Shown one piece after another: positions 17,881-18,178 of a DNA stretch of 64,000 nucleotides. A program made the translations under genes and the position numbers. The notes under the pieces are model-generated. The model searched no databases. It was not told the origin of the DNA and saw nothing but the letters and a program-made list of their open reading frames with translations. Origin of the DNA: Escherichia coli (GTDB lineage Bacteria > Pseudomonadota > Gammaproteobacteria > Enterobacterales > Enterobacteriaceae); assembly GCF_045037415.1 (NCBI RefSeq), contig NZ_CP173438.1; one strand, written 5' to 3'. Numbering within the stretch: the stretch's first letter is position 1; each line of letters starts with the position of its first letter.

Positions 17881-17970
17881 GCAGAATATTTTGTTGAAAA
17901 ATGACGTTGGCTAATACGGACGGATAACACGAAATCCTGAGAACTGGCAAAACCTAAGTGAATAAAAGTA

Positions 17971-18009
17971 AAAACCCCGTTTGTTGGCTGCAAGCGGGGT
18001 TTTGTGTTT
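17971..18009 (+). terminator. terminator-like hairpin between R and Rz
   Basis: CCCCGTTTG / CAAGCGGGG stem (one G-T pair) followed by TTTTGTGTTT. Confidence 0.45.
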
Positions 18010-18039
18010 CCTGACTCTGGAAAAGTCAAAGGAGAAAGT

Positions 18040-18177
18040 GTGTTTGATTTTAGCAAACTGATTCGGGAGATTCGAGTGATGGCTGAAAAATTATCCACCT
18101 GGAAGTTCATTCTTATCTGGCTGGTGTTTGTGATTATGGCCTCCGGTTATTTCATCGGTCAGATACGCTGGTGGTGA
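18040..18177 (+). CDS. candidate small membrane peptide (45 aa)
   Basis: GTG at 18040 with GGAG 5 nt upstream; VFDFSKLIREIRVMAEKLSTWKFILIWLVFVIMASGYFIGQIRWW; stop abuts Rz ATG; not in ORF track (<60 aa). Confidence 0.3.
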   Translation: MFDFSKLIREIRVMAEKLSTWKFILIWLVFVIMASGYFIGQIRWW

Positions 18178-18178
18178 A

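Follow-up and report, generated by a model that had tools for sequence, protein, structure and literature searches.

What is encoded in the 298-nucleotide (nt) spacer that separates the endolysin gene R from the spanin gene Rz in a lambdoid lysis cassette of Escherichia coli, and do the parts of this spacer belong together? The locus lies in a 64,000-nt stretch of DNA (contig NZ_CP173438.1 of assembly GCF_045037415.1; the whole stretch is called the window here), in which R ends at 17880, Rz starts at 18179, and the spacer covers 17881-18178. The first-pass annotation of this DNA had described a spacer of about 300 nt with a stable hairpin followed by a T-run, and a GTG-initiated small open reading frame (ORF), preceded by GGAG, whose stop abuts the Rz ATG. 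All of this was borne out, with the hairpin stem at 17971-18003, a T-tract to 18009/10, the ORF at 18040-18177, and 1 nt between the ORF's stop and the start of Rz. However, hairpin and ORF had been taken as separate items, and here we depart from that description, because the spacing of hairpin and ORF stays the same whichever of several unlike genes precedes them, indicating that hairpin I and the ORF, leader included, are one conserved unit. Our preferred reading, to which we assign a probability of roughly 55%, is that this unit is a self-contained accessory cassette in a Q-dependent late operon, encoding a terminator-gated, dual-start inner-membrane peptide. The features of the cassette are the following (SD, Shine-Dalgarno sequence; aa, amino acids):

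17955-18042, + strand: 88-nt cassette leader, with A-tract, hairpin I, U-tract, hairpin II, SD and start codon
17971-18003, + strand: stem of hairpin I, an intrinsic-terminator-type stem-loop, with the U-tract TTTTGTGTTT running to 18009/10
18012-18028, + strand: hairpin II, TGACT-N7-AGTCA, its 3' end 2 nt before the AGGAG of the first SD
18031-18034, + strand: first SD, GGAG, 5 nt before GTG; GGGAGAAC or AGGAG is kept there in relatives
18040-18177, + strand: small membrane protein gene (phrog_6632), long form of 45 aa with GTG start; stop TGA at 18175-18177
18065-18069, + strand: internal SD, GGGAG, within the Arg9 and Glu10 codons CGG GAG, 9 nt before the ATG of codon 14
18079-18177, + strand: predicted short form of 32 aa, MAEKLSTWKF...RWW, from the internal ATG
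18167-18174, + strand: Chi site, GCTGGTGG, formed by the C-terminal Arg-Trp-Trp codons
18175-18181, + strand: stop/start junction TGA-A-ATG between the small ORF and Rz, the stop 1 nt before the Rz ATG

Conservation of the reading frame in relatives had been raised in the first-pass annotation as the point on which the ORF would stand or fall, and the frame proved to be strongly conserved. Compared with the E. fergusonii copy there are 25 differences, distributed over codon positions 3/1/2 as 17/7/1, and compared with the Salmonella copy there are 42 (21/15/6); in one E. coli variant, all five differences are at third positions. The ratio of non-synonymous to synonymous divergence (dN/dS, Nei-Gojobori) against the Salmonella and E. 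fergusonii copies was 0.09-0.15, at a dS of about 1-2, while in the other two frames the proportion of non-synonymous differences (pN) was about equal to, or higher than, that of synonymous differences (pS). Because the frame is strongly conserved, and dN/dS is low in that frame only, the ORF is evidently a protein-coding gene under purifying selection. A 97-aa ORF on the - strand (17817-18110) was rejected, since the substitutions track the + strand frame.

The 45-aa peptide, VFDFSKLIREIRVMAEKLSTWKFILIWLVFVIMASGYFIGQIRWW, is annotated in some RefSeq copies of the identical spacer as WP_000459345.1, a 'hypothetical protein', and in others is not annotated. Its only match in PHROGs was PHROG 6632, of unknown function (E = 1e-29), and no family match was found in Pfam, NCBIfam, PADLOC or PDB sequences. 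Homologues are present in E. coli, E. albertii, E. fergusonii (82% identity) and Salmonella (67%), and a profile search of 1.84 billion representative proteins yielded 48 clusters, with members also from Enterobacter, Yersinia, Burkholderiaceae and Neisseria, all of them named 'hypothetical' or 'phage protein'. The family motif is SK[LI][IL]RE[LI]RxMxE[KR]LxxW[KR]F, followed by a hydrophobic helix that often ends in RWW. When AlphaFold2 was run on a 29-sequence alignment, helices were placed at residues 4-17 and 20-44, with a break at 18-19 and a confidence (pLDDT) of 82; as modelled, the peptide is an amphipathic N-terminal helix joined to a single hydrophobic helix of transmembrane length. 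One E. coli variant, P0025, has the internal stretch WEVHSYLAGVCDY, after which the C-terminal GYFIGQIRWW frame is regained, and looks like a sequencing error or a compensated frameshift pair. We also considered whether the Chi site could be the reason for the RWW end, and rejected this, since the Chi-giving CGC codon is used in 19 of 35 distinct RWW-ending ORFs, a share not clearly above ordinary arginine codon usage. Chi at the end of the ORF is probably a by-product.

The pattern of codon use within the ORF points to a second start codon. Met14 (ATG at 18079) is invariant, or nearly so, across the family, and GGAG or GAGG is found 8-9 nt before this ATG in 26 of 28 distinct sequences. The Glu10 codon is GAG in 28 of 28. 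Arg9 is encoded by CGG (13 sequences), AGG (2), CGA (3), AGA (1) or CGC (1), and never by CGT, such that rare codons account for 19 of the 20, CGT and CGC being the common arginine codons in enterobacteria; where residue 9 is lysine, its codon is always AAG. Synonymous divergence is also low in this region (pS 0.23 in codons 2-13, versus 0.72-0.91 downstream), which points to an extra constraint at the nucleotide (RNA) level. Most members have GTG or TTG at the first start, all have ATG at the second, and some annotators call the 32-aa form only. Since the 13 N-terminal residues are conserved as protein in distant members with an ATG start, and the first start has an SD of its own, two products, of 45 and 32 aa, are predicted.

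Hairpin I, located upstream of both starts, has the sequence AAAACCCCGTTTG-TTGGCTG-CAAGCGGGGTTTT, followed by GTGTTTCC. A terminator scan gave it a stem of 14 pairs, by far the longest among five terminator-like sites in 16500-19900, a number of sites not above chance (3.6 expected). The + strand RNA folds at -21.6 kcal/mol (z = -3.8, with none of 200 shuffles as good), compared with -14.4 kcal/mol for the - strand. Across 33 leaders, hairpin I has 12 pairs, with 92% of cells paired and both sides changed in 7 of the 12; the covariation score was reached by none of 500 shuffles, and pairing collapsed when partner columns were slid. T-tracts are good throughout on the + strand, while those on the - strand are poor in distant copies such as that at locus L098, and distant copies keep their U-tracts, the start codon following the hairpin by about 35-45 nt. 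Hairpin I therefore has the features of an intrinsic terminator, namely a G+C-rich stem-loop directly before a U-rich tract, in a structure that is evolutionarily maintained. The interval from the first base of the T-tract to the internal ATG is 72-81 nt in 62 of 66 distinct upstream regions, the exceptions being L100 and the L141-143 group. Because 32% of background ORFs, a high rate, have a hairpin by a looser, folding-based criterion, our argument is based on this fixed spacing and not on hairpin presence alone.

The U-tract and the SD are separated by only about 30 nt, of which the variable part is the loop of hairpin II. In most relatives, the second hairpin is formed by CCUUG/CAAGG (or the variant CGUUA/UAACG), with its 3' arm overlapping the SD; the 5' arm (CACCUUG, AACCCCUU) is reminiscent of the anti-SD end of 16S rRNA. 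Hairpin II is 77% paired, and three of its five pairs have changed on both sides; the figures rise to 89% and five of five on a model-fitted alignment, which takes in non-training copies and is biased towards the structure. For the leader, a covariance model, R1 (88 positions, 17 pairs), was trained on 33 diverse leaders and scored the window leader at 87.2 bits on the + strand (E about 1e-18) and 34.6 bits on the - strand, scores that are partly by construction, as the window leader is among the training sequences. Beyond ordinary terminators, R1 detected no further leader copy in the window. When 15000-21000 was searched with Rfam models (cmscan, E <= 1), nothing relevant was found, the only matches being a rimP leader on the - strand at 28 bits (gathering threshold 47), a sub-threshold chance match, and an unrelated long non-coding RNA. 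No sigma-70-like promoter was found on the + strand near the cassette in a scan of 16500-19900 for promoters of this type, and a candidate in 17865-17920 (TTGACA at 17870) was rejected, since the scan was negative there and a -10 element at usable spacing is absent.

The cassette is found in several genomic settings. In prophages of Salmonella and E. fergusonii, the ORF lies 1 nt before the i-spanin gene, with the hairpin still upstream, and the flanking holin, endolysin (PF00959 or GH19) and spanin (PF03245 or DUF2514) genes are of differing families. The TGA-N-ATG junction is kept in these copies despite the different spanin family downstream, and in most copies the ORF's stop is 1-8 nt from the next start codon; in the window, the TGA-A-ATG layout suggests translational coupling to Rz. 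Other members are located outside lysis cassettes. In Salmonella phage SEN34, whose own R and Rz genes abut, and in its relatives, the cassette lies between baseplate spike and wedge genes. One distant member (L095) follows a portal gene, another member precedes a 645-aa tape-measure-like ORF, and L098 is at a locus with a DNA uptake sequence that we take to be of the Neisseria type.

The first-pass annotation had suggested a moron remnant as one identity for the ORF. The idea of an insertion fits our comparisons, as the cassette is absent from the R/Rz junctions of K-12 Qin and SEN34, and ant lies there in 933W, but the term remnant does not, as the unit is intact and under purifying selection. 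The alternative raised there, a small lysis-timing factor, may hold: the dual-start layout and the place beside Rz favour it, and the members outside lysis cassettes speak against a dedicated lysis role. The R/Rz junction is itself variable. K-12 Qin, in which R overlaps Rz without a spacer and no counterpart of the cassette exists, and SEN34 carry nothing at this position, 933W has ant and a 43-aa hydrophobic ORF, and vB_EcoS-705R7 has four small hydrophobic ORFs. The junction accumulates genes for micro-membrane proteins. Small hydrophobic ORFs lie directly before Rz in 933W (L003 3339-3491), PhiR12_2 (L004 2854-2985) and vB_EcoS-705R7 (L005 827-1176), for example MISDKLITLVKSLCVLVGISF...; these are unrelated-looking, coupled start to stop, and have no R1 leader.

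The leader is also found before other small ORFs. R1 detected two or three + strand copies per locus at L011 (2670-2907), L101 (1596-1863), L102 (160-405), L104 (978-1205 and 2618-2706), L108 (three copies) and L110 (2109-2555), each before differing small ORFs with one predicted helix, and in PhiR12_2 an R1 leader precedes a 60-aa ORF with a diverged version of the motif at its N-terminus (KRILLRLTM) and a different hydrophobic tail. Many of the sister ORFs led by R1 end in IRWW, and some are in tandem arrays. One subgroup has an internal 'GKM' (e.g., NTGGKMSEKGAD and KVSGKMSTEDAG), which might be another internal start.

Under our preferred reading, the cassette would work as follows. Having no promoter, and a terminator at its 5' edge, it would be silent to ordinary RNA polymerase, and the peptide would be made only when the terminator-resistant, Q-modified late polymerase reads through; in this window, hairpin I would also gate Rz/Rz1. 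By holding back initiation at the weak first start, hairpin II would determine how much long product is made relative to short, a part played in lambda by the sdi stem-loop for S107/S105. The tight stop/start junction would keep the downstream gene translated, allowing the cassette to be tolerated between essential late genes. As for the peptide itself, the short form could be an active membrane perturber that aids release of the signal-arrest-release (SAR) endolysin, with the long form as its inhibitor. A late inner-membrane modulator of lysis is the most likely single option, because of the dual start, the one membrane helix, the position beside Rz and the SAR-like endolysin, but we propose it tentatively and with the odds against it; the remaining probability is divided among superinfection exclusion, another membrane role, and no benefit to the phage. 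A broader proposal, which we think rather unlikely as a whole, is that the leader defines a class of plug-in late-gene cassettes for antitermination phages, gating and partitioning interchangeable micro-membrane proteins of two lengths. Each pair might then act as a minimal timer of the holin/antiholin kind, or trigger the release of SAR endolysins by collapsing the membrane potential, and the leader would double as a recombination handle from Enterobacteriaceae to Neisseria.

Several points weigh against this account. For transcription, termination and translation, the evidence consists throughout of comparative inference. Hairpin I could instead stabilise the 3' end of the S-R message or be an RNA processing site. 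In the window copy, hairpin II is in a shifted register that leaves the SD uncovered, and control of the start ratio may be weak here for that reason. The internal Met and the Glu and Arg residues before it could be conserved for protein reasons, although this would leave the choice of codons unexplained. Dependence on Q was considered in two other cassette phages with annotation read, SEN34 and SPN3UB, both of which encode Q-like antiterminators, and the check was limited to these two, leaving out the Neisseria-type and metagenomic loci. As for a role in lysis, members are found outside lysis cassettes, in the baseplate and portal neighborhoods and before the tape-measure-like ORF described above, and no similarity to holin, antiholin or releasin families was detected in PHROGs, Pfam, NCBIfam, PADLOC or PDB sequences.

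Other explanations of the locus have to be weighed against a terminator-gated late cassette. The peptide could be a superinfection-exclusion or lysogenic-conversion moron, made in the lysogen by leakage through the terminator or from an unrecognised promoter, and blocking entry of phage DNA or modifying a host membrane protein. Small inner-membrane proteins whose genes lie among tail genes can act in exclusion, as HK97 gp15 does, and the cassette is both very common in E. coli prophages and present or absent, in moron-like fashion, at variable sites that include tail gene clusters. We regard this as unlikely, since no sigma-70-type promoter was found on the + strand and the interval of about 30 nt between hairpin I and the SD leaves no room for one, while expression in the prophage would be hindered, not helped, by a conserved terminator just upstream, and tight coupling to downstream late genes argues for late expression. 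That the cassette is instead a selfish or neutral shuffling unit, in which small ORFs spread mainly by way of recombination at the leader and the RWW/Chi end (compare the PeSL elements of T4-like phages), with a peptide of little function for the phage, is quite unlikely. It would account for one leader standing before different ORFs, for tandem arrays, for replacement boundaries at the start codon and for the Chi site at the ORF end, but a dN/dS of about 0.1 at a dS of 1-2 indicates that the protein itself is selected, and Chi is not enriched beyond ordinary codon usage.

If hairpin I were a mere operon-internal terminator, or a stabiliser of the S-R mRNA 3' end, the ORF would be unrelated to it, or would be an upstream ORF that delivers ribosomes to Rz. 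Terminators are common between lambdoid late genes, a weaker hairpin lies at much the same position in 933W, which does not have this ORF, and the TGA-A-ATG junction suggests coupling to Rz. Nevertheless, the distance between hairpin and ORF is fixed behind lysozyme, GH19 endolysin, portal and baseplate spike genes alike, and purifying selection on the amino acid sequence, together with unrelated genes downstream, indicates more than delivery of ribosomes to Rz; the results on selection, covariation and spacing largely refute this explanation, and we judge it very unlikely. Least plausible to us is a module like a type I toxin-antitoxin system, with the hydrophobic peptide as toxin and, as antitoxin, an antisense RNA that starts within the ORF and ends at the hairpin, which would serve as a - strand terminator. 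The peptide is short and hydrophobic, a hairpin adjacent to the SD suits toxin mRNAs, the A-tract before hairpin I is TTTTTACTTTTATT on the - strand, and there is one promoter-like site on that strand (18162-18133). This site is not conserved, however, reading ATTATG in the window, ATCCTG in E. fergusonii and GTCGCT in Salmonella. The - strand hairpin is the weaker one (-14.4 versus -21.6 kcal/mol), the leader model scores much lower on that strand, its T-runs are poor in distant copies, L098 among them, and the toxin mRNA would have no promoter of its own, in a cassette that is co-oriented with, and coupled to, the late genes.

The surroundings of the cassette were identified from the ORF list, the RefSeq annotation of an identical copy and PHROG matches, and form a lambdoid lysis cassette with these features:

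16713-16928: class II holin gene
16933-17283, + strand: YdfR-family gene, between holin and endolysin genes as in K-12 Qin; matches several PHROGs of unknown function
17347-17880, + strand: endolysin R, lysozyme type, left neighbor of the cassette (phrog_7 endolysin, E = 5e-62; RefSeq 'lysozyme')
17881-17954, + strand: spacer segment after R, present in 933W and VT2-Sakai, both of which are without the hairpin and ORF
18179-18646, + strand: Rz (i-spanin), right neighbor of the cassette (phrog_13, E = 5e-74)
18399-18584, + strand: Rz1 (o-spanin), embedded in Rz (phrog_3198, E = 6.5e-29)
19843: start of the terminase small-subunit gene

The hydrophobic N-terminus of R looks like a SAR sequence. 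Of 5426 complete E. coli genomes, 2016 have the spacer in whole or in part. Its first 75-90 nt or so are common to 933W, VT2-Sakai and other Shiga toxin (Stx) phages that have ant in place of the cassette, and most Stx phages matched the spacer query in a phage BLAST search only at positions 1-86 or 3-95. The segment at 17881-17954 is apparently linked to R and not to the cassette; in an alignment of 40 variants it differed more among E. coli copies than did the cassette, and it contains a mini hairpin of 4 bp, GGAT-N8-ATCC at 17922-17937, kept via wobble changes.

Further from the cassette, a 46-aa hydrophobic ORF (18997-19137, + strand; WP_000347013.1, 'hypothetical protein', in RefSeq copies) lies after Rz; the gene that comes next, of the YlcI/YnfO family, is on the - strand (19270-19455). 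Upstream of the holin gene, at about 14680-16562 (800-2682 in the RefSeq copy, L001), there are pseudogenes, with a truncated DNA-methyltransferase fragment fused to a DUF6645 fragment, and a 513-aa ORF (15021-16562) spans the DUF6645 part. Shuffling predicts 2.45 copies of the Chi sequence in the window; there are 13, ten of them on the + strand. Three of the ten (17765, 18167 and 18214) share a 460-nt interval where the lysis cassette ends, with the terminase small-subunit gene about 1.6-2 kb further on. Should cos lie immediately before that gene, their orientation would be, by the orientation rule for Chi and RecBCD, the one met by RecBCD entering from that end of the genome.

About one in three complete E. 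coli genomes carries the cassette, which is found in Stx1 and Stx2 phages and in the classical phage H-19B, among others. In the literature, the gene was not found by accession, peptide string or topic, nor in the supplements of small-ORF surveys, and we found no description of the hairpin and ORF as a conserved, portable, dual-start cassette across temperate phages of Proteobacteria. If our reading is true, the cassette would add a fifth, regulated component to the widespread lysis cassette type with pinholin and SAR endolysin. It would also be a compact natural example of antitermination-conditional expression, a second, independent case of structure-directed dual-start translation, and a temperate-phage counterpart of the PeSL shuffling cassettes of T4-like phages. 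The R1 model can be used directly to spot unannotated micro-protein genes in phage late operons.

The cassette resembles several known systems in part. Morons are extra genes inserted in lambdoid late operons (Hendrix/Juhala, as used in PMC2629481). Like them, the cassette is present or absent between conserved late-operon neighbors and has no evident role in morphogenesis, whereas classical morons, which are expressed from the prophage, have their own promoter upstream and a terminator downstream; here no promoter and no downstream terminator were found, the sole terminator being upstream of the ORF, and the next late gene begins right after the stop. In T4-like phages, PeSL elements consist of promoter, stem-loop terminator and SD motifs that flank small variable ORFs, with a strong sigma-70 early promoter, in early hyperplastic regions of these virulent phages (PMC2839356, PMC4122927). 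The leader shares with them a repeated intergenic terminator stem-loop motif that ends in an SD and start codon, precedes varied small ORFs, occurs in arrays and marks points of exchange. It differs from them in having no sigma-70 promoter, in having a second hairpin at the SD, and in its location in late operons of temperate phages, and no sequence relationship between the two was found.

The prophage small RNAs AgvB, AsxR, Pas and STnc100 are likewise short structured elements with a Rho-independent terminator in the lambdoid late region. AgvB and AsxR are located between Q/PR' and the holin gene (PMC4104026), and Pas and STnc100, as described in a preprint, are at other positions before the holin gene. 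In contrast, the element described here lies between R and Rz and is followed by a conserved coding frame; we rejected identity with the known prophage small RNAs, since their positions differ and the Rfam models, including AgvB, AsxR and STnc100, gave no match. The peptide is similar to type I toxins and other very small inner-membrane peptides, such as TisB, Hok and Ldr, in its size, its single hydrophobic helix and its structured leader at the SD. In contrast to type I toxin genes, neither a dedicated promoter nor an antisense or divergent small-RNA gene was found for the ORF, which is co-directional with its neighbors in a late operon.

Dual-start holin/antiholin genes with an upstream stem-loop, as in lambda S107/S105 with sdi and phage 21 S71/S68, offer a further comparison. 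The starts described here are 13 codons apart instead of 2-3, the products, of 32 and 45 residues, have one transmembrane helix, and there is no similarity to holin families; the position of the cassette varies, and a class II holin gene is already present at 16713-16928. Nevertheless, as in the dual-start holin genes, a gene for a small membrane protein in a lysis cassette has two in-frame starts, each with an SD, and a hairpin at the first of them.

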